Assembly (NCBI GenBank): GCA_965223855.1 | Contig: CBDCXM010000009.1 | Location: forward strand, 2,240,001 to 2,304,000 | Reading direction: 5' to 3' | Origin: Candidatus Multivoradales bacterium | GTDB lineage: Bacteria; Acidobacteriota; Thermoanaerobaculia; Multivoradales; JAHEKO01 | DNA length: 64,000 bases | Shown here: piece after piece, positions 4,254-59,185 of the stretch | Layout of the letters: each line of letters begins with the position of its first letter | How positions within the stretch are numbered: position 1 is the first letter of the stretch | Position numbers and translations under genes: made by a program | The notes under the pieces: generated by a model | Told to the model about the DNA's origin: nothing | Databases searched by the model: none | Seen by the model: only the letters and a program-made list of their open reading frames with translations

Positions 4254-5090
4254 TTGAGCACCACCGGGCCTCGCGGGCCGTCGGGACTGCTGAGGACTGT
4301 CAGGCGGGTCGTTCGCGAGTGGCGACAGGGACGGGCGCGACGGCGGTTCCTGAAGCATCGCGGCAACGATCTCGAGGCTTTGCGCTGCCGCGTGTCCTAC
4401 AACCGCTACGGCGGGTACTGCGTTCCTGATTCCTCGGCCCATCGCCCCGCGGCCCGGCGGATCCTGGCGAGCGACGTCTACGAGCCCGACACGATCGAGT
4501 ACCTGCGCGCCAACTGCGGCCGGGGCGACATCGTTCATGCCGGCACCTACTTCGGTGACTTCCTGCCCGCTCTCTCGAGCGCGGTCGACGAGGAGGCACT
4601 GGTCTGGGCCTTCGAACCGAACCGTGAGAACTATCGCTGCGCGCGCGTGACCCTCGAGCTCAACGGCATTGGAAACGTGAGGTTGAGGAACGCAGGACTC
4701 GGCTCGAGGAGCGAGAGGCGCCCGTTCAGGGTGCGCGACGAGTTCGGTCGATCGCTCGGAGGTGCCAGCCGCCTTTCAGAGGTCGAGCAGGGCCGGGAAC
4801 CGGGCACGGAGCTCGTCGAACTCGTCGCCATCGATGACGTCGTGAGCGAAGACCGGCACGTCTCGTTGCTGCAGCTCGATGTGGAGGGGCACGAGAGAGA
4901 GGCGTTGATCGGCGCCCTGGGCCTCGTGGAACGCTGCCGCCCGGTGCTGGTCCTCGAGGATTTCCCGGGCAGCGGGCTCTTCGAGGGGGACTGGTTCGCC
5001 TCGTCGATCCTCAGCCTCGGCTACCGCCGCGAGCGCCGGCTCCACGGCAACGCCGTCTTCGCGCCGGAAACACCCGGCCACGCCGGCTGA
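4254..5090 (+). CDS. FkbM-family SAM-dependent methyltransferase
   Basis: HAGTYFG, WAFEPN and LQLDVEGHE motifs; start uncertain. Confidence 0.8.
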   Translation: MSTTGPRGPSGLLRTVRRVVREWRQGRARRRFLKHRGNDLEALRCRVSYNRYGGYCVPDSSAHRPAARRILASDVYEPDTIEYLRANCGRGDIVHAGTYFGDFLPALSSAVDEEALVWAFEPNRENYRCARVTLELNGIGNVRLRNAGLGSRSERRPFRVRDEFGRSLGGASRLSEVEQGREPGTELVELVAIDDVVSEDRHVSLLQLDVEGHEREALIGALGLVERCRPVLVLEDFPGSGLFEGDWFASSILSLGYRRERRLHGNAVFAPETPGHAG

Positions 5091-5096
5091 CCGGGC

Positions 5097-6413
5097 TCAG
5101 AGCCGGGTTCGGGTCGCCGCCAGCCCGCCTACCAGCGAGCCGCTGACGGCACCGTCGGCGGCGCCGAAGACGATCGCCGGCAGCAGGTTGCCCTCGGCGG
5201 TTCCGGCGAGGGTCGGGTGCGCGAGATCGACGACGGCGAAGTCCGCCCAGGCGTCGGGCTCGATGCGCCCCGCTTCCAGCCCCAGCGCGCCGGCGCCGCC
5301 ACGGGTGGCAATCTCGAGGAGTCGCGGGGCGTTGTCGCGATCCCGGTCGAGCACGACGCCACGCTCGCCGCGCCGCAGGCGCTGACCGTACTCGAGCAGT
5401 CGCATCTCCTCGAGCATCGAGATGCGGGCGTTCGAGTCGGTGCCGAGACACAGCGCCGCCTCCGGGTGTTCGAGGCTTTCGAACGCCGGCAGGCCGTCCC
5501 CGAGGTTGGCTTCGGTCAGAGGGCACAGACAGATGTGAGCCCCCGCAGCGGCGAAGCGCCTCACGTCCGCACTCGTCGAGTGGGTGGCATGGACGGCACA
5601 GAACTCCGGGCCCGGCTCGAGCCGATCGGTGACGAGAGCGAGCGGGCCCACGCCCCACGCCTCACGGCACTCTTCGATCTCCCGCGGCTGCTCCTCGAGG
5701 TGCATGTGGAAGACGAGGCCGCGGTTTTTGGACTCCGTGTGGAGCTCCCGGATCTCTCCGGGGTCGGCGGCGCGGATCGAGTGGGCGACGGCGCCGAGCC
5801 TGACGGTGCTGCCGTCGGTGAGGCCCTCCAACTCGTCCATGCGGCGCCAGTAGCTCTCCGGGTCGGGAGTGGCGAACCGTTGCTGCCCGCCGGACAGCTC
5901 GGTGCCGATGCCGCCGCTCCGGTAATAAGCGACCAGCAGCGTCAGCCGCAGGCCGGTCGCGCGCGCCGCCTCGACGACGACCTCGTCGAACGCGTGATCG
6001 CGCGCCCCGGGGTCGAGGTGCCGCAGGTAGTGGAACTCGCCGACCGCCGTGATGCCGGCGGCGCGCATTTCGCCGAACGCCCGCCGGCACCACTGTCCGA
6101 GCGTCGTCTCGTCGAGTTCCTCGACCAGGCCGTACATCGCCTCCCGCCAGCTCCAGAACGAGCCGGCGCCGGCGGGGAAGTGCTCTCCCCGGCCGCGCAG
6201 CCCGCGCTGGAAGGCGTGCGAGTGGGCGTTGACGAAGCCGGGAAGCAGAGCGCAGCCGTGGAGCCGCTCGTCCGCCTCGACGCCGAGGGCACCGCAGCGG
6301 GCGATACGCCCGTCCCCGTCGATCTCGACCTGGAAGTCGCGCTGCCAGCGGCCGTCCGCCCAGGCGAGCTGAGCTTCGAGGGTTCTCGTCCTGCCGCTTT
6401 CCGGCGAGCTCAT
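5097..6413 (-). CDS. hutF: Formimidoylglutamate deiminase (amidohydrolase)
   Basis: PGFVNAHSHAFQRGLRG, SFWSWREAMY, VGEFHYL, CPLTEANLGDG, LGTDSN; ATG 6413 overlaps the upstream stop (ATGA). Confidence 0.9.
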   Translation of the reverse strand: MSSPESGRTRTLEAQLAWADGRWQRDFQVEIDGDGRIARCGALGVEADERLHGCALLPGFVNAHSHAFQRGLRGRGEHFPAGAGSFWSWREAMYGLVEELDETTLGQWCRRAFGEMRAAGITAVGEFHYLRHLDPGARDHAFDEVVVEAARATGLRLTLLVAYYRSGGIGTELSGGQQRFATPDPESYWRRMDELEGLTDGSTVRLGAVAHSIRAADPGEIRELHTESKNRGLVFHMHLEEQPREIEECREAWGVGPLALVTDRLEPGPEFCAVHATHSTSADVRRFAAAGAHICLCPLTEANLGDGLPAFESLEHPEAALCLGTDSNARISMLEEMRLLEYGQRLRRGERGVVLDRDRDNAPRLLEIATRGGAGALGLEAGRIEPDAWADFAVVDLAHPTLAGTAEGNLLPAIVFGAADGAVSGSLVGGLAATRTRL

Positions 6414-7558
6414 CGCGGCCTGGCTCCGCAGAAGCGCTCGATCAGGTCGTCGACCACCGCACCGAGCTTCTCGAATTCGTGCTTCGGCAGGTACTCGTTC
6501 GGCTGGTGAGCCACCTCGATCGAGCCGGCGCCGAAGAGCACGCAGTCGAAGCCCGCCCGCGACAGGGCGCCGGCGTCGCTCGAGAATGACGCCCCCAGAT
6601 CGCGCGATTCCCCCGATGTTGCCCGGAGCGCCTCGAGCAGCGGTGCGTCGGCCCGCGTCTCGAGGGCGGGGCTCTCGTTGTCGATCGCGAGCTCCCAGTC
6701 GCTCCCTCCGAGCGCCGGCTCGAGGGTTCGGCGCACCCGCTCGGCGACGCTCGCGCCGTCCATCCCCGGCATCAACCGGACGCCGATCTCGAGCCGGCAC
6801 CGTTCGGGGATGACGTTGACGGCACTGCCGCCGTCGATCCGCCCGACGTTGAGGGCGGCGAAAGGCACCTCCGGGAACTGCTCGGCATGGGAGGTCTCGG
6901 CGCGCAGACTCGCCGCCAGAACGTCCAGCGCGGTGATCGCGCGGCCGGCGGGAACGATGGCGCTTCGCCCTCGATCGGGGTAGCCGCTGTGGGCGCTCCT
7001 GCCGGAAATCTCGAGTCCCAGCCGCAGGTGCCCCTTGTGAAGCCGTACCGGCTGGAGCTCGGTCGGCTCGCCGACCAGAACCTGCCTGGGGATGGGGCGA
7101 TCGCCGTGCTCGCGCACCCAGTGCTGCGCACCCCTGGAGCCCACCTCCTCGTCGGAGGTGAGGAGCACTCCCAGCGGAGCCTGGAGTTGCGTGGCATCGA
7201 GCCGGCGGAAGCGATCGATCGCCAGGGCGACGAACCCCTTCATGTCGCACGCTCCGCGCGCCGTCCAGCGATCGCCGCCGTCCGTCAACTCCCAGGGATC
7301 ACTCTCCCACCCCGGCTCGTCGGCGGGAACGACGTCGAGGTGACCGTTCAGGAGCAGCCCTGCGCGCTCCGTATCCCGCGGTCCGCGCAGCAGCAGTACG
7401 TTGGCCTTGCGGCCGGAGTCGTAGGGCTGAACGGTGGTCTCGTCGTCGGCGGCTCCGGCTCGGGTGACGACCCATTCGGCCAGCTCCCGGGAGGGAGCCG
7501 CGCTCACCGAACGGCAGGCGACGAGGTCGCGAAACAGGGAGACGACGTCGTTCGCCAC
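6410..7558 (-). CDS. argE: M20 family acetylornithine deacetylase (ArgE-like)
   Basis: NGHLDVVP, RGACDMKGF, SDEEVG, VGEPT, AHQPNE. Confidence 0.85.
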   Translation of the reverse strand: MANDVVSLFRDLVACRSVSAAPSRELAEWVVTRAGAADDETTVQPYDSGRKANVLLLRGPRDTERAGLLLNGHLDVVPADEPGWESDPWELTDGGDRWTARGACDMKGFVALAIDRFRRLDATQLQAPLGVLLTSDEEVGSRGAQHWVREHGDRPIPRQVLVGEPTELQPVRLHKGHLRLGLEISGRSAHSGYPDRGRSAIVPAGRAITALDVLAASLRAETSHAEQFPEVPFAALNVGRIDGGSAVNVIPERCRLEIGVRLMPGMDGASVAERVRRTLEPALGGSDWELAIDNESPALETRADAPLLEALRATSGESRDLGASFSSDAGALSRAGFDCVLFGAGSIEVAHQPNEYLPKHEFEKLGAVVDDLIERFCGARPR

Positions 7559-7619: not shown

Positions 7620-7645
7620 TGTGACTTCTGCGCGGCACGTCGGTC
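7620..7645 (+). promoter_or_regulatory. Putative ECF-sigma promoter TGTGACT-N14-CGGTC (copy 3)
   Basis: TGTGACT at 7620-7626 and CGGTC at 7641-7645, with the same boxes and spacing as the copies at 53349 (+) and 53264 (-). Confidence 0.55.
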
Positions 7646-7885: not shown

Positions 7886-7995
7886 CGAGCGCCCGGGACG
7901 TAGCCGGGACGCACCGGCGGCCCCGGTGCCGCGTGGTACGATCCCGGCCCGCGGCGGGCCGACGCCGCCCGCGCGACCCCACCCTGAGATCGACC

Positions 7996-9990
7996 GTGAC
8001 GTCCGACAACACCGTTCGGCTGACGCCCGGCAAGAGGGTTCTCTTCCTCACCAAGGATCCGGAGCTGATCCGGCGCCAGCTCGCCGGCGAGCTCGATCTT
8101 TCGATGCGCGACCTGTCAGTCGACGACCTGCTCGACGACATCAACACGGACGCGATGACCCCTGCCTGGGTCTGCTTCTCGCACCGGCCGGAGGACATCG
8201 CCCGGGACGCCTACGCCGGGTTGATCGTCGATGGCGAGCGCCTCTTCGAGCGCGACGCCCTCGCCAACGGCAACTTCGAGGTGATCGTCTCGGGTTACCG
8301 CAAGGGGGTCGGCAGCTCGCGCGAGACGGCCGTGCAGGCGGAGAAGTGGTCCGGGATCCGGATCGCCGTGGCCGCCTCGTTCGCACCCATCCATGCGGCG
8401 AACAACATCAATCAGGGCGTCCTGATGGCCGATCACGCCATGCTCGAGCGGCTCGAGGGGGGAGAGGAGATCGAGCTCGAGGAGTTCTGCCGTGACTTCG
8501 ACCCGATCACCCGGCTGATCGTGCATGCGGGGGGGCTTTTCCCGTTCGCTCGCGCGGTGGCCGACAGCTCGCTCGAGTTGCCGGTGAGCGAGACCGGGGA
8601 GCGCCCGATGACGATGGCGGAGAAGATCCTCGCCCGGCACCGCGTCGGCGAGGGCTCGCGCTGCGTGAAGCCCGGCGACTCGCTGGTCGTGAGCGTCGAT
8701 GGCGGCTACTCGCACGAGTTCACCACCGCCCAGGTGCATCACTTTCTGCAGCAGGAGCACGGCGAGGGCTATCGACTTACGGATCCGGAGCGGTTCGCCG
8801 TTTTCGAGGATCACCTCATCTACGCCGACGACGTGCCGCGGATGGCTCCCTTCCTCGACAAGATCGAGACCCTGCGCCGGCTGCAGCGCGAGTTCCAGCG
8901 ACACACCGGCGTGCAGGATTTCTCGGCGCGCGACGGGGTCTCGCCCGGCATCTGTCACGAGGTGGCGCGCGACCAGCTCGTCTCGCCGGGGCAGTTCGTG
9001 CAGGCGACCGACTCCCACACCTGCATGGGGGGCTGCAACAACGCCCTCACCTGGGGGGTCGGCGCCACCGAGTACGCGAGTCTCGTCTACTCCGGCTTCA
9101 CGACGGTCGAGGTCCCCGAGTCGATTCGCTTCGAACTCGTCGGGGAGCTGGCGGACGGGGTCACCGCCAAGGACCTGATGCTCTACATCCTGCTCGAGTA
9201 CGCGCGGCCGCAGAAGACGCTCAACCGGGTCATGGAGTTCACCGGGCCCGGCGTGCGGACGCTATCGATGGACGAGCGGGCGACCCTCACCAACATGGCG
9301 ACCGAATGTTCGGCGCGCACCGCGATTGTCGAGGCGGACGAAGAGACCTTCGCCTGGCTGGCGCGGCAGCGGCCCGGGATCGACGTCGACGGGCTGCGCG
9401 CCGGTGCGGTTTCGCCCGATGCCGGCGCCGAGTACGCCGGCGGCGTCCACTCGATCGACCTGTCGTCGATCCGTCCGATGGTGGCCCACCCCGGCGACCC
9501 CGATCGCGGCATCCCGTCCGATCCGACCAACGGCGCCTACGTCGACGATCTGGGCGAAGTGCCGATCGACATCGCCTACGGCGGGAGTTGCACCGCCGGC
9601 AAGATCGACGATCTGCGCTTCTACCACCGCGTCGTGCGCGAGGCGATCGACGCCGGACGGACGGTGCCCGAGGACGTTCGCTTCCTCATCCAGTTCGGCT
9701 CGCGCGACGTCGAGGACTACTGCCGCGAGGCCGGTTTCCTCGAGGACTTCGCCGCCGCCGGAGTGCAGCTCATCCGTCCCGGCTGCGGAGCCTGCATCGG
9801 ATGCGGCCCCGGAGTCTCGGAGAACGAGCAGCAGGTCACGGTCTCGGCGATCAACCGGAACTACAAGGGGCGCTCCGGCCCCGGCAAGCTCTTCCTCGCT
9901 TCCCCTCTGACGGTCGCCGCGAGCGCGTTCGCCGGCCGGATCACGCCGTATCGCAGCGGCATGTTCGAGAGAGTGACGGCAGCGACTTGA
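7996..9990 (+). CDS. Aconitase-superfamily dehydratase, fused swivel (LeuD-like) + [4Fe-4S] large (LeuC-like) domains
   Basis: DDINTDAMTP and GVGSSRETA (swivel); TMAEKIL, GICHE, TDSHT, GGSCTAG, PGCGACIG, NRNYKGR, LASP. An extended -10 (TGGTACGAT, 7934-7942) favours GTG 7996 over 7933. Confidence 0.85.
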   Translation: MTSDNTVRLTPGKRVLFLTKDPELIRRQLAGELDLSMRDLSVDDLLDDINTDAMTPAWVCFSHRPEDIARDAYAGLIVDGERLFERDALANGNFEVIVSGYRKGVGSSRETAVQAEKWSGIRIAVAASFAPIHAANNINQGVLMADHAMLERLEGGEEIELEEFCRDFDPITRLIVHAGGLFPFARAVADSSLELPVSETGERPMTMAEKILARHRVGEGSRCVKPGDSLVVSVDGGYSHEFTTAQVHHFLQQEHGEGYRLTDPERFAVFEDHLIYADDVPRMAPFLDKIETLRRLQREFQRHTGVQDFSARDGVSPGICHEVARDQLVSPGQFVQATDSHTCMGGCNNALTWGVGATEYASLVYSGFTTVEVPESIRFELVGELADGVTAKDLMLYILLEYARPQKTLNRVMEFTGPGVRTLSMDERATLTNMATECSARTAIVEADEETFAWLARQRPGIDVDGLRAGAVSPDAGAEYAGGVHSIDLSSIRPMVAHPGDPDRGIPSDPTNGAYVDDLGEVPIDIAYGGSCTAGKIDDLRFYHRVVREAIDAGRTVPEDVRFLIQFGSRDVEDYCREAGFLEDFAAAGVQLIRPGCGACIGCGPGVSENEQQVTVSAINRNYKGRSGPGKLFLASPLTVAASAFAGRITPYRSGMFERVTAAT

Positions 9991-49700: not shown

Positions 49701-50012
49701 TCAGGCGGCGACCCAGAGCGCAGCGGCGAGCAGAATGCCGCTCAGGCCCAGGAACATGCCGCCGACCGCGGCGAGGTTGCCCCACAGGGTCCCCTCCTTG
49801 GCGGTCTTGCCGAGGATCATCAGGCTGATCGAGGCGATCGCGAGCTGGACGAGCACGAACAGGAAGGTCGTGGAGCCGGAGAGCGAGGCGCCCGGCTCCT
49901 GGCCGGCAGCGGCGCTCCAGTTCATCCCGGCGATGACGGCGGCGACCGCCAACACTGCGAGAGCAATGAGGTCCCATCTCTTGGGCTTGGGGCCCAGTGA
50001 AGGAAGTTTCAA
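49701..50012 (-). CDS. Small hypothetical membrane protein (~3 TM)
   Basis: Hydrophobic segments and GC3 bias; start uncertain (TTG 50012). Confidence 0.55.
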   Translation of the reverse strand: MKLPSLGPKPKRWDLIALAVLAVAAVIAGMNWSAAAGQEPGASLSGSTTFLFVLVQLAIASISLMILGKTAKEGTLWGNLAAVGGMFLGLSGILLAAALWVAA

Positions 50013-50086
50013 GGCACGCTCCTCCCGTACGGTTCGGTTCGTGGAACGCGAGGATGGTAGCACGCCGCAGAGGGGCCGCTGCAGAC

Positions 50087-50118
50087 GAAACGAGCCCGGC
50101 GCAGACGCGCCGGGCTCG
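50087..50118 (-). terminator. Intrinsic terminator after the BON-LysM gene
   Basis: 12-bp perfect stem (50091-50102 with 50107-50118) followed by TTT on the minus strand. Confidence 0.6.
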
Positions 50119-50144
50119 GGAAAGTCACTGCCTGCGGAGCGGCT

Positions 50145-50636
50145 TCAGCCGTCCTGCGGGATGCGCAGCACCTGACCGGGGAAGATCTTGTCGGGGTGCT
50201 CGAGCATCGGCTTGTTGGCCTCGAAAATCTGGTGGTACTTGTTGGGGTCGCCGTAGTGCTCCTTGGAGATCTTCGACAGGGTGTCACCCGAGACGACGGT
50301 GTAGAAGACCGCCTTCGGGCCGGTGACCTCGAGACGGTCGTCCACGGTAGCGATGCCGGCGGTGTTGCCGATCGCCAGGGCGATCTTCTCCTTGGTCGCC
50401 TGGTCGGCGACGCCGCCCGCCACGCGCACGGTGTCACCGTCGACGTGGATCTGCAGGTCGTCGATGTCGAAACCGAGCGCCTTCACGTGGCGCATCAGGC
50501 TGAGCGCCCGCATCGCGTCGTTGGCTGCGTCAGCGCGCTTCTCGGCCTCGGTCGGCTGCGGCGGCGCCTTGACGGAGTCGTCGTCCTGGCCGAGCAGCTT
50601 GGCGCCGGCTTCCTTGATGAATGAAATGAGTCCCAT
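50145..50636 (-). CDS. kbp: BON-LysM protein (Kbp/YgaU-like K+-binding protein)
   Basis: MGLISFIKEAGAKL N-terminus, EKIALAIGN.AGI, YTVVSGDTLSKISK, IFEANKPML..PDKIFPGQVLRIP. Confidence 0.85.
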   Translation of the reverse strand: MGLISFIKEAGAKLLGQDDDSVKAPPQPTEAEKRADAANDAMRALSLMRHVKALGFDIDDLQIHVDGDTVRVAGGVADQATKEKIALAIGNTAGIATVDDRLEVTGPKAVFYTVVSGDTLSKISKEHYGDPNKYHQIFEANKPMLEHPDKIFPGQVLRIPQDG

Positions 50637-50694
50637 CGGAAATCCCTCCTCTTGTGGAGTCTATGTGCGTGAAGTTGCCGAGTGCGCTGTGCGC

Positions 50695-51291
50695 TCAGCG
50701 ATTGCGGAGCATCTTGCCGAGAAGGCCGGCTCCGAGAGAAGCGACATCGTCGGCGAAACTGCCGTCTCCGTCGCGGTCCAGCAGTTTACCGACCATGTCC
50801 ATCGCCTGTCCCGCCTCCGACGGCGAATGGTCGCGCTCACCGCGCAGCATCGATTCGAGACCTCGCGAATCGAGCCCCGAGCCGCGGCGCTGCTTGCCGA
50901 GGGCACCGAGGACGATCGGCGCCAGCATGGCGAGCAGCTGCCCGGCCTTGCCCGAATCGAGGCCGCTCATCCTGCCGAGACCGCTCTCGACGGCGCCCCG
51001 GCTGTTGCCGAAGACGTGGCCGAGAATGCCGTCGCCGCTGCGGCCGGGGCCGCGGGTGACGTAGCCGGCGAGATCGTCGAGGATGCTGCCGTCGTGGTCA
51101 CGGTCGAGTGCCGCGCCGAGCGCATCCGCGCCGCCGCTCTGCTGAGTGTTGCGCGCGAGGCCGCCGAGCAGCATCGGCAGCGCGCCGGCGATCGCCTTCG
51201 AAGCGAGGTCGTCGTCGATGCCGAGCTGGCGGCCGATCTGCCGGGTGGCGTCGCCGCCGAGCTGCTGCATCAGAGTATCCATCAAAGACAT
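50695..51291 (-). CDS. DUF937 family protein
   Basis: ALPMLLGGL, DHDGSILDDL, GILGHVFG, LLAMLAPIVLG, LDRDGDG. Confidence 0.8.
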   Translation of the reverse strand: MSLMDTLMQQLGGDATRQIGRQLGIDDDLASKAIAGALPMLLGGLARNTQQSGGADALGAALDRDHDGSILDDLAGYVTRGPGRSGDGILGHVFGNSRGAVESGLGRMSGLDSGKAGQLLAMLAPIVLGALGKQRRGSGLDSRGLESMLRGERDHSPSEAGQAMDMVGKLLDRDGDGSFADDVASLGAGLLGKMLRNR

Positions 51292-51318
51292 GGGTGATTC
51301 TCCTGGAAGTTGTGTGGA

Positions 51319-53166
51319 TCAGGCGTCTCGCGAGCGCTCGAGCAGTGCCTGCGCACGGTCGCGGCCGCCGAGCCCGAAGGCGAGACCGACCGCGAGGGCG
51401 GCACCGCCGACGACGGCGGCGACGACCATCTGCACGACGCCTTCACCGACGCCGAGCTGGCTCAGGCCCATGCTGGCGCCGAGGAAGATGATCGCGTAGC
51501 GGGCGATGTTCGACAGCAGCGCCTGGTGCTCGGAGCCGCCGAGAGCGCTGGAGACGAGATTGCCGACATAGTTGCCGATCGACAGCGCCGCGAGGATCAC
51601 GACGAGGCCGACGGCGAGGTTCGGCAGGTAGCGGATGAGGTCGCCGACCAGCAGCGACAGGCGATCGAGGTTGAGCGTCGCCAGTGCCTGTTCGGCGGTC
51701 AGAAGCAGGATGAGCGCCATCACGACGGTGCCGCCGATGGCCGACAGCGAGGCGCCGCCGTCCTTCGGCTGCAGGAAGTGCAGGCCGAACTTCGACGGCA
51801 GAGCGTCGAAGCCGACGCCGCTGAGGAACGAAGTGACGATTCCTCGAACGGTGTTGGCGATGTAGTAGCCGATGGCCACCACGATCAGACCGCCGAAGAT
51901 CAGCGGCACGGCCGACAACAGCTGCTCGAGGGTGTTGCGCACCGGGGTCGAGATCGCCTCGATCTTGAGTGCGTCGACGGCGGCGACGATCACCGGCACG
52001 AGAATGAAGAAGTAGGCCACCGTCCCTGCGATCTCGGAGACCGGCTTGACCCCTTCCGAGCGGCCGAAACCGACACGGGCAGCCATTCGATCGGCGCCGA
52101 CCGCCGCCAGGAAGTTGGTCGCGATCTCTCGAACCACGGTGGCGACGATCATGCCGATGCCGACGAGCACGATCGCGGCGACGATGTTCGGGATGTAGCC
52201 GAGCGCCGTCGTCAGCATTCCGGTGAGCGGAGCGACCAGCGACTGCTGGCCGAGCGCCTCGAGGAACGGGGGCAGGGCGAAGAGCAGGACGGCGTAGAAC
52301 ACCAGCCGGCCGATCATGCTGCTCGCCATCACCGTCTCGCCCTTGACCTCGCGCGGCGGGAAGTACTTCTCGGTGCGCTGGTCGAAGCCGACGGCGTGGA
52401 GGCCGCGGGTGGTCAGCATCTTCAGGATCGACGCGACGATCCACGCCACGAGCAGGATGACGAACGCCTTGAGCAGCGCCGGGATGAGCCCGAGGATCGT
52501 GGAGACGACCCCCTGGAGCGGACCCGCCACCATCTGCAGCTCCAGGGCGTCGAAGAAGGCGACGAAGCCGAGCAGCAGGATCACCCACTTGACGACCGCT
52601 CCGCCGAGCTCGTCGACGGTGGTCTTCTCGCCCTTCTCGTTCTCGAGGAACCTGCCGAGACCCCAGTCACGGGCGGCACGCTCGTCGACGGTGGTGAGGC
52701 TCAGAAGCTTCGTGGTTCCGGCACCCAGAGCGAGCGCCAGGATCCAGGCGACGGCGAGGATCAGCAGCGCCTTGAGCAGCACCGGCAGGGCGGCGGCGAA
52801 GCGCTCCCACATCGGCACCAGTGCCTCGGACCACAGTGCCTTGCCCTGGTCGCGAACGCCGGCCGTACCGGCCTGCGCGGCCTCGGCCATCTCACCGGCG
52901 GCGCTGCCGACCGCGCCGGTGATCGTGGTCGGCGGATTGCCGGCGGCGGGCTCGGCAGTCTGCGCCGGAGTCGGCTCCGCCGCTGCGGGTTCCGTGGCGG
53001 CCGGCTCCTGAAGCGCCGGCTCCTGAAGCGCCGGGTCCTGAGGCGCGGGTTCCTGCGCGGCCGGTTCCGTCGCGGCGGGCTCCTGAGCGAGCACCGGCGC
53101 GGCGACTCCGGCGAGGGCGACGACGAGCGCGAAGCCGAGAATCTGCAGTCGAGTTCTCTCGAGCAT
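51319..53166 (-). CDS. CmpX-like / MscS-associated conserved TM-helix repeat membrane protein
   Basis: Signal peptide, (Q/T)EPAx repeats, ~5 repeats of the IP..(A/G)..IL..(G/A)..(I/V)A unit, ending LAFGLGGRD. Confidence 0.8.
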   Translation of the reverse strand: MLERTRLQILGFALVVALAGVAAPVLAQEPAATEPAAQEPAPQDPALQEPALQEPAATEPAAAEPTPAQTAEPAAGNPPTTITGAVGSAAGEMAEAAQAGTAGVRDQGKALWSEALVPMWERFAAALPVLLKALLILAVAWILALALGAGTTKLLSLTTVDERAARDWGLGRFLENEKGEKTTVDELGGAVVKWVILLLGFVAFFDALELQMVAGPLQGVVSTILGLIPALLKAFVILLVAWIVASILKMLTTRGLHAVGFDQRTEKYFPPREVKGETVMASSMIGRLVFYAVLLFALPPFLEALGQQSLVAPLTGMLTTALGYIPNIVAAIVLVGIGMIVATVVREIATNFLAAVGADRMAARVGFGRSEGVKPVSEIAGTVAYFFILVPVIVAAVDALKIEAISTPVRNTLEQLLSAVPLIFGGLIVVAIGYYIANTVRGIVTSFLSGVGFDALPSKFGLHFLQPKDGGASLSAIGGTVVMALILLLTAEQALATLNLDRLSLLVGDLIRYLPNLAVGLVVILAALSIGNYVGNLVSSALGGSEHQALLSNIARYAIIFLGASMGLSQLGVGEGVVQMVVAAVVGGAALAVGLAFGLGGRDRAQALLERSRDA

Positions 53167-53238
53167 GGTCCTACTCTCCTTCCCAGATGGCCTTAGGCCG
53201 AGTGATACCTGCAAGGATACCGCTCGCCTGATGTTTCT

Positions 53239-53264
53239 GACCGTTCCGTCCCCGGATAGTCACA
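53239..53264 (-). promoter_or_regulatory. Putative ECF-sigma promoter TGTGACT-N14-CGGTC (drives cmpX-like-DUF937-kbp)
   Basis: Minus strand reads TGTGACT ATCCGGGGACGGAA CGGTC, ending ~70 nt before ATG 53166. Confidence 0.65.
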
Positions 53265-53348
53265 CCTCCGCCGCCTCAGTGGCCTCGCGGCCGCGTCCGG
53301 TAGGATCGTCAGGCTGCAATCCATTGTCAGAGGGAACCGGGGTCGGCA

Positions 53349-53374
53349 TGTGACTTCGTCACCGCTCGCCGGTC
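53349..53374 (+). promoter_or_regulatory. Putative ECF-sigma promoter TGTGACT-N14-CGGTC (drives mscL-DUF3465-sigX-crfX-cmpX)
   Basis: TGTGACT TCGTCACCGCTCGC CGGTC, ending ~70 nt before the mscL ATG. Confidence 0.65.
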
Positions 53375-53447
53375 CAGAGAAGCTCAGGTCGGTCATCCGG
53401 GCGCCGGTCGAATCCGCGTCCATCTTTGAAAAGGGGAGGAACCACGT

Positions 53448-53870
53448 ATGTTGAAGGAATTCAAGGACTTCGCCGTCAAGGGCAACGTGCTCGACATGGC
53501 GGTCGGTATCGTCATCGGCGGTGCTTTCACGCCGATCGTGAAGTCGCTCGTCGACGACCTGCTGATGCCGATCATCGGCCTCTTCACCGGCGGCGTCGAC
53601 TTCACCGACAAGTTCATCGTGCTGAAGGCCGGTGCCGAGGGAGCCGCCTACTCGACGCTCGCCGCGGCGAAGGAAGCGGGAGCGGTGACGCTCAACTACG
53701 GCGCCTTCATCAACACGATCTTCACCTTCCTGATCGTCGCTTTCGCGATCTTCATGATGGTCAAGACGTTCAATCGCTGGAAGGAAGAAGAAGCCGAAGC
53801 GCCGGCCGCTCCCCCGCAGGACATCGTGCTGCTGGAGGAGATCCGCGACGCACTGAAGTCCAACGGCTGA
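53448..53870 (+). CDS. mscL: Large-conductance mechanosensitive channel
   Basis: [41 protein letters not shown]. Confidence 0.97.
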
Positions 53871-53873
53871 ACC

Positions 53874-53914
53874 CGGGCGCGGCCCGGCCTCACGGTCGGG
53901 CCGCCTCCCGTTTT
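53874..53914 (+). terminator. Internal terminator/attenuator after mscL
   Basis: GCGGCCCGGCC-TCAC-GGTCGGGCCGC stem followed by TTTT. Confidence 0.55.
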
Positions 53915-53933
53915 CGTCAGGAGTGCGCTTTTC

Positions 53934-54368
53934 TTGAATCGCAGTCGGCAGCAGTTGCTGAGACTCGTCGCCGTCGGCCTGGTGGCCGCCGGCGCCTGGC
54001 TCTACCAGCAGTACGGGGCCGGTACGTCCGTCGGCGTCTCGGGCGAACTCGCCGAGGTGATCCGAACGCGCGCTTCGGGCGCGATGGTCGAGGTCGAAGG
54101 GGTGGTTTCCAGGACGCTTTCGGACGACCTCCACGGCGATCGCCATCAGCGGTTCATCCTCGATGCCGGTAGCGGCAACACCCTGCTCGTGGCTCACAAC
54201 ATCGACCTCGCACCGAGAGTGCCGATCGATCTTGGCGACGAGGTGACGGTGCGCGGCCAGTACGAGTGGAACGACAAGGGTGGCGTGCTGCACTGGACCC
54301 ATCACGATCCGGACGGGTCGCGCCGCGACACCGGCTGGATCCGTCACCAGGGGCGTACCTACGAATGA
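53934..54368 (+). CDS. DUF3465 family protein
   Basis: L.DD..G.RHQRFIL, TLLVAHNIDLAPR, G.YEWN..GG..HWTHHDP, GWI.H.G. Confidence 0.85.
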   Translation: MNRSRQQLLRLVAVGLVAAGAWLYQQYGAGTSVGVSGELAEVIRTRASGAMVEVEGVVSRTLSDDLHGDRHQRFILDAGSGNTLLVAHNIDLAPRVPIDLGDEVTVRGQYEWNDKGGVLHWTHHDPDGSRRDTGWIRHQGRTYE

Positions 54369-54996
54369 CCCTCCAGGAGCTCGAGGACCGGGAGCTGGTC
54401 GAGAAGGTGCGCCGGGGGCCGGGCGACACCCGACCGTTCGAGGTGCTGGTCGAGCGCTACCAGTCGAAGATCCTCGCCAACTGCCGCTATCTGACCCGTT
54501 CGCCGAACGACGCCGAGGACCTCGCGCAGGAGGTCTTCGTCAAGGCGTTCTTCGGGCTCAAGCGCTTCGAAGGGCGCTCCAAGTTCTCGACCTGGCTGCA
54601 GCGCATCAAGATCAACCACTGCCTGAACTTCAACCAGAAGCGGCACGGCAAGCACATGGTCGACATCGAGGAGCCGGGCATGGAGGTCGCGGCCGGTCTC
54701 TTCGACGAGGCGCGCGGCGAGAAGGACCTCGAGAGCTTCGACGAACGGCGCCGCATCGCGCGAGTGCTCGACGCCATGTCGTCCACCCTGAGGGTCCCGC
54801 TCCTGCTGCGCGACCTGGACGGCATGACCTACCAGGAGATCGCCGAGCAGCTCGACATCGGGCTGTCGGCCGTCAAGATGAGAATCAAGAGAGCCCGTGA
54901 GGAGTTCCGTCAGCGCTACGACGAGGTCGTGGCCGGCGAGGTTGCGGCGGCCACCTGCTCGAATCAGGCCGGAGCGCGGCGTCGGAGATCGCATGA
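54365..54996 (+). CDS. sigX: ECF sigma factor, Pseudomonas SigX-like (apparent 1-nt indel near 3' end)
   Basis: ELEDRELV, AEDLAQEVF, GLKRFEGRSKFSTWL and YQEIA..L.IGLSAVKMRIKRA resemble SigX as recalled. The probable true stop is the TGA of the ATGA overlap at 54993-54996, one base out of frame. Confidence 0.75.
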
Positions 54997-55290
54997 GCGA
55001 CGAGCGCTTCGACGGCCTCGAGGAGGACGACATCGACACCGGCCAGCCGATCGCCCAGCTGGCGTCGCTGCGCGAGGAGCCGCAGATCGGGTTCTTCGGA
55101 CGGATCCGGCGCTCGATTCGAGCGGCGCCAGCTCGGCTCCGACATGGCCGAGCTGTCGGTGTCCGGCCTCGCGGCGGTGTTTCTCGAGCTGCTGCGTGCG
55201 ATGTTCGGGCTGGCCGAGGAAGCCTCGGCGAGGCCTCGAGGGACCAACCACGAGTCGGAGCAAGGACCGGGTAAAGGAGACGCAACATGA
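54993..55290 (+). CDS. Small CrfX-like putative anti-sigma factor (one frameshift near 55120)
   Basis: MSDERF...FFGRIRRSI. Removing one base continues ERRQLGSDMAELSVSGLAAVFLELLRAMFG... to TGA 55290, which overlaps the next ATG. Confidence 0.5.
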
Positions 55291-56119
55291 ACGAAACTCT
55301 GGCCGTCAAGGACCAGCTCGTCCTCACGTTTCGCAATCTGATCACCGAGATCGTCGCGGCGACTCCGAGGGTGCTCGTCTGGCGATCGCGCTCTTTCGTC
55401 GTTGCCATCCTGTCGTGGCGAAGGGGATTCGAGAAGCTCCTCAAGATGCCGTGCTGACGAGGATCCGGTTCGACAGCCTGCTGTCCCGAAGGTCGGTGTC
55501 GATCAGGCGCTGCAGCGGATCGGGCTGCGCCAGCTGATGAGCGACTTCATCCCGCGGACCGCCTACTTCCTGCTGCTGTTCCTGTTTGCGCGGGCTGCGG
55601 CCGACGCGCTCGGTCTGACGGCCGTCTCCAGCGCCATCGGCACCTTCCTCGGCTACGTGCCCAACCTGATCGCCGGCATCGTCATCGTGCTGCTCGGCAG
55701 CACGGCCGGGCAGGTGGCCGGGCTCGGCGGTCTCGACGGCAGCGGAAAACTCGGGCATCGAGTTCGGCTCCACCCTCGGCAAACTCGTCTCGGCGCTGAT
55801 CCTGTTCGTGGCGGGCATCATGGCGCTCGGGCAGCTCCAGGTCGACACCGACATCATCCGGGTTGTCACGACCTGCTTCCTCGCCGGCCTGGCGCTCGCC
55901 TTCGCGCTTTCCTTCGGCCTGGGGACGCGCGAGATTGCCCGCAACGTCATTGCCGGCTTCTATGCCCGCAAGGTGTTCGAGGTCGGCAAGGAGATGGAGA
56001 TCGGCGACGAGCGTGGCAAGCTGGCGGCGATCACGCCGACCCAGATCCTCCTCGAGCAGGACGGTCGGACCGTGGCGATCTCGAACAGCGTACTGGTCGA
56101 TCAGGTGATCAAGCAGTAG
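55287..56119 (+). pseudogene. cmpX: CmpX/MscS-like mechanosensitive channel protein, interrupted by several frameshifts
   Basis: SD AAAGGAG with ATG 55287. Fragments in different frames: GYVPNLIAGIVIVLLG, LAFALSFGLGTREIARNVIAGFY, and MscS-like G.E..IG...G....I.....ISN. Confidence 0.7.
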
Positions 56120-58597: not shown

Positions 58598-59185
58598 GTG
58601 ACCGCGACCCCCAGTGACGCGCAGGCGATCGCCGCCGCCCTCGAGGGGTCGGAGGAGGGGTATCGCCTCCTCGTCGAGCGCTATCAGAAGCCGGTTCTGA
58701 GCCTGATCCGGCGGATTGTGCGCGACGCCTCGTGGGCCGAGGATCTCGCTCAGGAGGCGTTCGTCAAGGCGTTCCGGGCGCTGGACACCTTCCAGCAGCA
58801 GCGCAAGTTCTCCAGCTGGCTCTTCAAGATCGCCCACAACACGGCGCTCGACGCGCTGCGCCGCAAGCGGATCGACACGGTGCCGCTGGAAACGTCGGAT
58901 CCGGACCGGGGCGATTTGCTAGATTTGCTGCCTGGCGACGACCTCGACACCCCCGAAAGCGCACTGCGCAGCCGCGGCCTGGCCGCGGCGATCCAGACGG
59001 CCATCGGACGGCTGCGGCCGGACTACCGGAGCGCCGTGGAGCTGAGGTTTCTGCAGGGCCTCGCCTACGAGGAGATCGCCGGGATCATGGACCTCCCGCT
59101 GGGGACGGTGAAGACCCACCTGCACCGGGCGCGCAAGGCGCTGATGGAGCATCTGAGCGAGTCGGGATGGACCCCCGAAGGATGA
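58598..59185 (+). CDS. ECF sigma factor (SigW/RpoE-like)
   Basis: AEDLAQEAF, KFSSWLFKIAHN, YEEIA....LPLGTVKTHLHRAR. Confidence 0.9.
   Translation: MTATPSDAQAIAAALEGSEEGYRLLVERYQKPVLSLIRRIVRDASWAEDLAQEAFVKAFRALDTFQQQRKFSSWLFKIAHNTALDALRRKRIDTVPLETSDPDRGDLLDLLPGDDLDTPESALRSRGLAAAIQTAIGRLRPDYRSAVELRFLQGLAYEEIAGIMDLPLGTVKTHLHRARKALMEHLSESGWTPEG

Follow-up and report, generated by a model that had tools for sequence, protein, structure and literature searches.

SigX of Pseudomonas aeruginosa is an extracytoplasmic function (ECF) sigma factor of group ECF102, for which CfrX is described as a putative soluble anti-sigma factor and CmpX and OprF as possible partners (PMC8999054, PMC7826278). The control of SigX in Pseudomonas is unsettled, with CfrX a putative anti-sigma factor (the word applied to it in PMC8999054), the role of CmpX unclear and the promoter consensus described as "not precisely defined" (PMC7641640). 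A channel gene is kept beside the ECF gene in ECF102 subgroups s1, s2 and s5, and in s2 and s5 a mechanosensitive channel is the sole conserved neighbour (Casas-Pastor et al. 2021, PMC7826278). Here we describe a related locus in Candidatus Multivoradales bacterium (Acidobacteriota; Thermoanaerobaculia), located at positions 50,145 to 56,119 of a 64,000-nucleotide stretch of contig CBDCXM010000009.1 (positions 2,240,001 to 2,304,000), hereafter the window. Eight genes are arranged in two divergent arms: leftward, genes for a multi-repeat channel-family protein, a DUF937 protein and a Kbp-like protein; rightward, mscL and genes for a DUF3465 protein, an ECF, a small protein and a CmpX-like channel, the last three translationally coupled by ATGA overlaps. 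We consider it likely that the locus is the Thermoanaerobaculia version of a SigX-type (ECF102-like) switch for envelope or mechanical stress, that its two arms form one regulon and that its genes are intact.

Like the P. aeruginosa SigX cluster, the locus combines an ECF that is the reciprocal best match of SigX, and that shares a clade with it, with a full-length CmpX homologue. The Pseudomonadaceae genomes, which were gathered via a 16S primer search, show the P. aeruginosa-type order cmaX-cfrX-cmpX-sigX-oprF. Unlike that arrangement, in which the small gene and the channel gene precede the sigma gene, the order here is sigma, small gene, channel; neither cmaX nor an oprF-type porin gene was found in the window arms, mscL heads the sigma operon, and a divergent second operon lies behind the same promoter-like motif. 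As in ECF102 subgroups s2 and s5, the ECF has a conserved channel neighbour outside the Pseudomonas-type subgroup (PMC7826278). The type of module is known, and its occurrence outside Pseudomonas, which the initial annotation had pointed out, is not new, since ECF102 subgroups with a conserved channel had already been published (PMC7826278).

Relation of the sigma factor to SigX

The ECF consists of sigma-70 regions 2 and 4 only (PF04542, 53.8 bits; PF08281, 52.2 bits; both above cut-off). Among the 26 proteins of the genome that match the NCBIfam SigX model, it ranks first, with 111.4 bits versus 89.2 bits for the next. The top match of its orthologue in G002, a genome of the same genus, is sigX in all three Pseudomonadaceae genomes searched (38-40% identity), and SigX in turn has the cassette ECF as its top match in four of four acidobacterial genomes (87-97 bits versus 69-73 bits for the next). 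The window ECF itself is 36% identical to SigX, so that the range including the G002 orthologue is 36-40%. In a maximum-likelihood tree of 40 ECFs, 25 cassette ECFs and four SigX proteins fall on one side of a branch with a support of 98/94; the 11 sequences on the other side are seven paralogues from this genome and four other ECFs of Pseudomonads. Taken with the channel described below, these similarities support the assignment of the ECF, the small gene and the CmpX-like gene to a SigX-type (ECF102-like) module. The SigX-CfrX-CmpX module put forward in the initial annotation thus stands for its sigma factor and its channel, whereas homology between the small protein and CfrX was not detected (hhalign probability 0.44%).

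The CmpX-like channel

The CmpX-like protein aligns with Pseudomonadaceae CmpX over its full length (positions 9-271 of 273, E about 1e-46 to 1e-53 in a profile comparison). Its profile finds a single match per genome in five of five Pseudomonadaceae genomes, with 32-34% identity, and its residues 113-271 match solved heptameric small-conductance channels (E 4e-8). PF05552 is present in CmpX orthologues; the window copy as assembled scores 16.9 bits versus a cut-off of 22 because its reading frame is broken in the assembly. The comparisons support the prediction of a CmpX-type channel of the MscS family.

The small protein as a predicted anti-sigma factor

A small open reading frame (ORF) lies between the ECF gene and cmpX in all 24 related loci. 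Like cfrX of P. paraeruginosa, it is a gene for 80-100 aa that overlaps the start of cmpX by ATGA; this 4-nt overlap directly before cmpX is seen for cfrX in locus L192, for the window gene (corrected) and for the gene in G002. The small protein belongs to no Pfam family and contains no recognised anti-sigma domain. In an hhalign comparison of 24 small proteins with four CfrX sequences, the probability of 0.44% (E 0.14, 23 columns) did not bear out the homology with CfrX that had been assumed. The nearest clusters in a Protein Atlas search are unnamed and acidobacterial, and the nearest one bearing a Pfam family is zf-HC2, at 0.79, which we take as a lead only.

When the ECF was modelled in complex with the small protein, from alignments of 24 rows each, the score was 0.77, compared with 0.01 for the best of three controls. 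Of 80 solved complexes, 58 attained this value, as did 2 of 110 mismatched pairs, a calibration that holds only roughly because our own alignments were used; part of the score may also reflect likeness, since sigma/anti-sigma complexes have been solved for other families. The three runs share at least 95% of their contacts, with a predicted local distance difference test (pLDDT) value of at least 67 for the small protein. Conserved residues 15-46 of the small protein contact residues 26-67 (region 2) and 128-189 (region 4) of the ECF in the model, and the hydrophobic C-terminal helix of the small protein remains outside the interface. The small protein is thus predicted to bind the ECF in the manner of an anti-sigma factor. 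CfrX itself is likewise not known to bind its sigma factor. Like RpoE-RseA and SigW-RsiW, the locus would represent an autoregulated ECF operon with a partner modelled between sigma regions 2 and 4. Unlike RseA and RsiW, that partner has no recognised anti-sigma domain and no clear transmembrane or periplasmic sensor part, and its gene is invariably coupled with that of a channel.

A promoter-like motif on both arms

A conserved motif of ECF type, TGTGACTT-N15-GTC, precedes mscL, and in the window a copy on the opposite strand, 87 bp away, precedes the operon of the channel-family, DUF937 and Kbp-like proteins. The general form of the motif is GTGAC(T/C)N-N15-GTC; the first search pattern was GTGAC[TA][TA]-N14-16-GTC. 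Although mean column identity is 46% in an alignment of the divergent region from four genomes, GTGACTT and the GTC 15 nt further on are invariant. The inverted second copy is found about 90-105 bp away in the window, G002 and G003, and about 30 bp away in G014, where it stands directly before DUF937. Of the 24 loci other than the window, 22 carry the motif before the ECF operon, 18 of them in the form of the first pattern and four as GTGACC or GTGACTC variants. As position and spacing fit an autoregulated ECF promoter, we infer that the motif is the promoter of an autoregulated ECF. Because it occurs on both strands of the divergent region, the two arms probably share the cassette ECF; judged from the sequences, the same conserved motif on both is in line with the common ECF-type control that had been suggested for them.

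The window contains four matches to the motif versus 0.13 expected, a number reached in none of 100 shuffles. G002, G003 and G014 contain 3 to 6 exact matches each, not above the reversed-pattern control, and in each of them two copies stand back to back at the divergent locus. Genome-wide evidence on the motif comes from exact-pattern scans only: in the source genome (G000), 12 exact matches were found versus about 8.8 expected from base composition, so that the bare count is not enriched and only position and conservation carry weight. Ten of these 12 matches lie away from the locus, and in three cases the orthologous gene of a relative is also found behind a motif copy, namely a DUF481 gene (G002), an aconitase-family gene (G003) and a Zn_protease gene (G002, about 1.2 kb from the motif). 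The remaining off-locus matches, with no orthologous gene behind a motif, were treated as chance. The DUF481 gene, which codes for an outer-membrane protein and is far from the locus, is preceded by the motif at a distance of about 100 nt, and the same is true of its orthologue in G002.

Two further copies in the window were recorded. One, at 7621-7645 on the forward strand, lies 312 nt before an aconitase-family gene (7933-9990; PF00330, 297 bits), the G003 orthologue of which has a copy 266 nt upstream. The other, at 50104-50128 on the reverse strand, overlaps the terminator hairpin of the kbp-like gene and lies 65 nt before the gene of a 120-aa membrane protein (49701-50063); this gene is syntenic in G002 and G003, where the exact motif is absent at that place.

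In Pseudomonadaceae, a comparable GTGAC(C/T)-N16-CGTC block is present 45-55 nt before cfrX in four of four loci, so that the two groups have in common a GTGAC-N17-(C/G)GTC block ahead of the unit of the small gene or of the ECF gene. We regard the cfrX-upstream block as a lead only, not as a mapped promoter, since the published cfrX start is at -208 (PMC7641640). Among the matches listed in a full-text search for SigX together with GTGAC, nothing concerned Pseudomonas SigX promoters.

Extra letters in the assembly

The source assembly comprises 4.5 Mb in nine contigs, with a G+C content of 68%. As assembled, the ECF gene has no stop codon, the small gene contains one frame change and cmpX contains at least seven. 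The initial annotation had recognised indel damage at two of the gene overlaps but understated its extent: we count 14 extra letters, two at the end of the ECF gene, one in the small gene and 11 in cmpX, spread over about 780 bp (54944-55722) and consisting only of insertions relative to G002 and G003. Among the rows listed, contigs from public runs of the same sample omit one or two letters at each of 54944/47, 54959/61, 55117, 55380, 55383, 55398, 55413, 55428 and 55718/22, and one such contig (record 7) spans 55125-55698 with ten gaps and no other differing letter. The two runs may be the assembly's own source and therefore provide an independent computation, not an independent sample.

With the 14 letters removed, all three genes are open, coding for 209, 98 and 273 aa, and the corrected CmpX is identical to its G002 orthologue at 207 of 273 positions (76%). 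All three ATGA overlaps are then in frame; the one at 54365 is so already as assembled, those at 54993 and 55287 only after correction. No other real gene is split in about 45 kb that is syntenic with contig C32 of G002. Given the same-sample contigs without the letters, the genes reopened by the correction and the neighbouring 45 kb without frame breaks, the frameshifts are assembly insertions, and the end of the ECF gene, the small gene and cmpX are intact. The run-specific variants X1 and X2 differ by single-nucleotide polymorphisms across the frameshifted stretch, and mixed strains may therefore have spoiled the consensus. The three seemingly broken genes should not be annotated as pseudogenes.

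Distribution and gene neighbourhoods

Of 401 Acidobacteriota genomes sampled, 19, from 15 of 228 genera, proved to contain the gene in a search with the CmpX profile. Of 18 loci fetched, 17 contain the ECF gene, the small gene and cmpX on one strand, and the contig of the 18th ends too early. The cassette is also present in a Longimicrobiales (Gemmatimonadota) metagenome-assembled genome (MAG), and metagenomes hold hundreds of CmpX-like proteins of 270-274 aa. Within the taxonomic order to which the source organism belongs, only five of 31 genomes, G000 counted, have an orthologue of the ECF at 53% identity or more. Genome G005 gave an ECF match and a weak match to cmpX, and is not relied upon here.

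Gene linkage was tallied for 27 CmpX loci including the window, over about 7 kb or as far as the contig reached; as members of one genus, the window, G002 and G003 were counted as a single lineage. The ECF gene stands beside cmpX in 25 loci. Nearby genes in several lineages include mscL (6 loci), DUF937 (7) and the multi-repeat channel (7), whereas kbp was found in 4 loci of two lineages and DUF3465 in 2, those of the window and G002; DUF481 is near cmpX in 2 loci. Linkage to the cassette thus recurs for mscL, DUF937 and the multi-repeat channel, while kbp is rarer and DUF3465 is confined to one genus. By the same token, the argument that association with the switch suggests a function applies to DUF937, with its 7 of 27 loci in several lineages, and is weak for DUF3465, with its 2 loci in one genus. 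The potassium angle is thin, as kbp is linked in 4 loci of two lineages. In G192, which belongs to another family, kbp, DUF937 and mscL lie on one side and the ECF gene, the small gene, cmpX and the multi-repeat channel gene on the other.

The motif precedes a range of genes in the related loci. These code for channels and DUF937 proteins, i.e., MscL (L013, L014, L015 and L068), multi-repeat channels (L013, L014, L031 and L066) and DUF937 (L015 and L056); for envelope proteins, i.e., DUF481 (L031), an OprF/OmpA-like porin located before the ECF gene (L064) and peptidoglycan-binding lipoproteins (L062 and L065); and for DUF4332 (helix-hairpin-helix) proteins (L057, L058, L063 and L069), PilZ (L058 and L059) and EAL (L031 and L056). 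The recurrence of PilZ and EAL behind the motif hints at a link with cyclic di-GMP. Like the Pseudomonas SigX cluster, some relatives include an outer-membrane partner, which is the OprF/OmpA-like porin in L064 and DUF481 in L031 and L035. DUF481 adjoins the cassette in a Thermoanaerobaculia MAG and in a Longimicrobiales MAG, and the DUF481 protein may be a stand-in for OprF.

Proposed mechanism and alternative explanations

If the motif is the sigma factor's own promoter, the switch would be autoregulated and both arms would belong to one regulon. Placed between regions 2 and 4 in the manner of an anti-sigma factor, the small protein would hold the sigma factor, and its free hydrophobic C-terminal helix, together with CmpX, would tie sigma release to membrane state, whether tension or fluidity. 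Once released, the sigma factor would raise its own switch and the emergency valves, MscL and the large protein of the channel family, along with proteins linked to the envelope or to ions, i.e., DUF937, the Kbp-like protein and the distant DUF481 outer-membrane protein. Tension, fluidity and general envelope stress are all possible signals, and the data do not distinguish among them.

Several points weigh against this explanation. The ECF scores about 111 bits (110.9) with the NCBIfam SigX model NF007222, below its cut-off of 194, and the RpoE model TIGR02939 scores it slightly higher, at 118.7 bits (its own cut-off being 236); the ECF tree has only 11 outgroup rows, and several of its branches are long. 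Profile comparison of the small protein with CfrX by hhalign gave nothing significant, and the complex score is the model's own confidence, obtained with our own alignments. Loci L035 and L068 lack a recognisable motif before the ECF gene (2 of 24), the leftward site of the window reads A instead of the consensus T at position 7, and in the divergent arm of G192 the motif is reduced to its -35 part. Transcription could end ahead of the ECF gene at a strong hairpin downstream of mscL. For Pseudomonas, the mapped cfrX start in P. aeruginosa H103 is at -208 and not behind the -50 block (PMC7641640), and P. aeruginosa MscL is reported to be modulated by AlgU (PMC10965496).

The departure from consensus at position 7 would also be expected if only the right arm, from mscL to cmpX, were under the ECF and the left arm were regulated separately, its motif being fortuitous or non-functional; the linkage of kbp to the cassette in just 4 of 27 loci points the same way. 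Despite diverged flanks, a leftward copy with the same spacing nevertheless persists in both G002 and G003 and, ahead of DUF937, in G014, and in other genera the motif stands before multi-repeat channel genes and DUF937 (L031, L056 and L066), which makes a one-armed regulon improbable. We give equally little weight to the view that GTGAC...GTC does not belong to this ECF but serves as operator for a DNA-binding regulator or as promoter for another sigma factor. The window copies do form an inverted pair 87 bp apart, and quasi-palindromic sites, whose two ends are GTGAC and GTCAC, also occur. Most loci, however, have a single oriented copy that lies 35-135 nt upstream of the start of the ECF gene and has a constant spacer of 15-16 nt, a geometry that is that of ECF -35/-10 boxes and of ECF autoregulation, and the element travels with the ECF across families and resembles the block before Pseudomonadaceae cfrX. 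By far the least probable alternative is that the end of the ECF gene, the small gene and cmpX are true pseudogenes of a decaying switch. The assembly as it stands, with 14 frame-breaking letters within about 780 bp, would suggest so, but the contigs of two same-sample runs are without these letters and otherwise identical or nearly so, the correction yields products of 209, 98 and 273 aa including a CmpX that is 76% identical to that of G002, and the differences are all insertions, with none in the adjoining 45 kb.

A further alternative concerns the signal and overlaps the explanation preferred here, which it does not exclude. The switch may be real and respond to general envelope or membrane-fluidity stress (cold, detergents or cell-wall damage), not specifically to osmotic or potassium stress, in which case the valve genes would be only part of a broad envelope regulon. 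The motif-linked genes of relatives, which include peptidoglycan-binding lipoproteins, an OprF/OmpA-like porin, DUF481, PilZ and EAL, are compatible with this, and Pseudomonas SigX is responsive to low temperature and to altered membrane fluidity (PMC7641640). On the other side, motif-linked channel partners recur (mscL in 6 and the multi-repeat channel in 7 of 27 loci, CmpX in all), and the Pseudomonas SigX work was done in low-osmolarity medium, in which the mutant grows poorly (PMC4362757). A general signal of this kind is possible, although we hold it to be the less likely case.

We suggest, with considerable reserve, that the cassette is a direct mechanical-to-transcriptional transducer, in which the state of CmpX, sensed via the C-terminal helix of the small protein, sets the clamping of the sigma factor, and that motif and logic are shared with Pseudomonas. 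If so, membrane tension itself would induce additional release valves, namely MscL and the five-repeat channel protein, together with envelope proteins; the promoter code GTGAC-N17-GTC and its logic would be common to Acidobacteriota, Gemmatimonadota and Pseudomonas, and the shared code would supply the SigX consensus lacking in the literature. The acidobacterial cassettes offer a conserved motif, also found before Pseudomonadaceae cfrX, and a predicted interface of sigma factor and small protein. The comparative regulon is dominated by mechanosensitive channels and envelope proteins, and would place DUF937 and DUF481 in a functional context for the first time, and DUF3465 less firmly so. Compared with the known ECF102 module type, the present locus is distinguished by mscL as the first gene of the sigma operon and by a divergent second operon behind the same motif, as well as by a motif found across phyla and a predicted sigma-binding surface; part of this may already be contained in the published ECF102/SigX data (PMC7826278, PMC4362757).

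Features of the locus and neighbouring genes

All eight genes of the initial annotation were found at their coordinates, as two divergent arms, and the intergenic region, estimated there at about 280 bp, measures 281 bp from ATG 53166 to ATG 53448. The features are collected in Table 1.

Table 1. Coordinates of genes, hairpins and promoter-like sites at the locus (window positions), with motif-related features of other loci
Feature	Position	Strand	Details
Kbp-like BON + LysM protein, 163 aa	50145..50636	-	LysM and BON domains; NF008399 183.7 bits vs cut-off 134
DUF937 protein, 198 aa	50695..51291	-	PF06078 124.8 bits vs cut-off 25.4
Multi-repeat mechanosensitive-channel-family membrane protein, 631 aa	51319..53214	-	PF05552 x5, 172.3 bits; NF033912 "msc" 270.8 vs cut-off 100
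mscL, 140 aa	53448..53870	+	PF01741 158.4 bits; NF010557 184.4 bits vs cut-off 159
DUF3465 protein, 144 aa, N-terminal hydrophobic segment	53934..54368	+	PF11948 120.3 bits
SigX-like ECF, 209 aa without 2 extra letters near 54944-54961	54365..54996	+	Sigma-70 regions 2 and 4
Small protein, 98 aa without 1 extra letter at 55117	54993..55290	+	Predicted anti-sigma factor; CfrX-analogous position
CmpX-like MscS-family channel (predicted), 273 aa without 11 extra letters, 55380 to 55722	55287..56119	+	CmpX profile match
Terminator-like hairpin 3' of kbp-like gene	50091..50118	-	12-pair stem, 11 G-C pairs, T-rich tail
G+C-rich hairpin with short U run, 3' of mscL	53874..53915	+	-36 kcal/mol, z-score -3.18
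Rightward ECF-type promoter-like site, GTGACTT-N15-GTC	53350..53374	+	74 nt before mscL ATG
Leftward ECF-type promoter-like site, GTGACTA-N15-GTC	53239..53263	-	About 70 nt before ATG 53166
cfrX-upstream blocks	L192:4026-4056; L193:3765-3795; L195:3959-3989; L194 around 6871	L194 on -	
DUF481 genes	G000:C9:2487652-2488631 (L051); L038; L031:9055-10000; L035:7939-8781		

The ORF of the 631-aa channel-family protein begins with TTG 53214, and its probable start is ATG 53166, ahead of a signal peptide. The C-terminal third of the protein is about 30% identical to CmpX-like proteins. The orthologous gene in G002 (L013:5057-6885) shows up as a pair of ORFs that differ in frame (5057-6478 and 6436-6771), which may be due to an assembly frameshift or to an effect of the low-complexity Pro/Ala/Glu-rich linker. 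DUF3465 matched no solved structure, and the sole solved-structure match of DUF937 was 1z67 (E 0.081). Mentions of DUF937 in the literature passages retrieved are sparse, one of them being a table entry.

The terminator noted after the kbp-like gene corresponds to a terminator-like hairpin at 50118-50091. The hairpin between mscL and the DUF3465 gene was not flagged in the terminator scan, and it is possibly an attenuator of read-through into the sigma genes. In G003 and G014, the gap downstream of mscL is merely 22-48 nt.

In Escherichia coli, the genes for MscL, MscS and Kbp are scattered in the genome, and we know of no ECF dedicated to them. Unlike in E. coli, the valve and Kbp-like genes here share one promoter motif. 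Like the E. coli valves and Kbp (YgaU), the MscL and Kbp-like proteins pass NCBIfam equivalog cut-offs (NF010557 for MscL; the Kbp/LysM equivalog, together with the BON + LysM architecture, for the Kbp-like protein), and the CmpX-like protein matches heptameric channels. The Kbp-like protein is of the Kbp/YgaU type by domains and score, and its potassium binding is putative; E. coli Kbp is reported to bind K+ (PMC6927797, PMC12456824).

A second ECF gene is located at about 58646-59155 on the forward strand, directly after uppP, and occupies the same place in G002 and G003; it is unrelated to the cassette ECF, with 37% identity.

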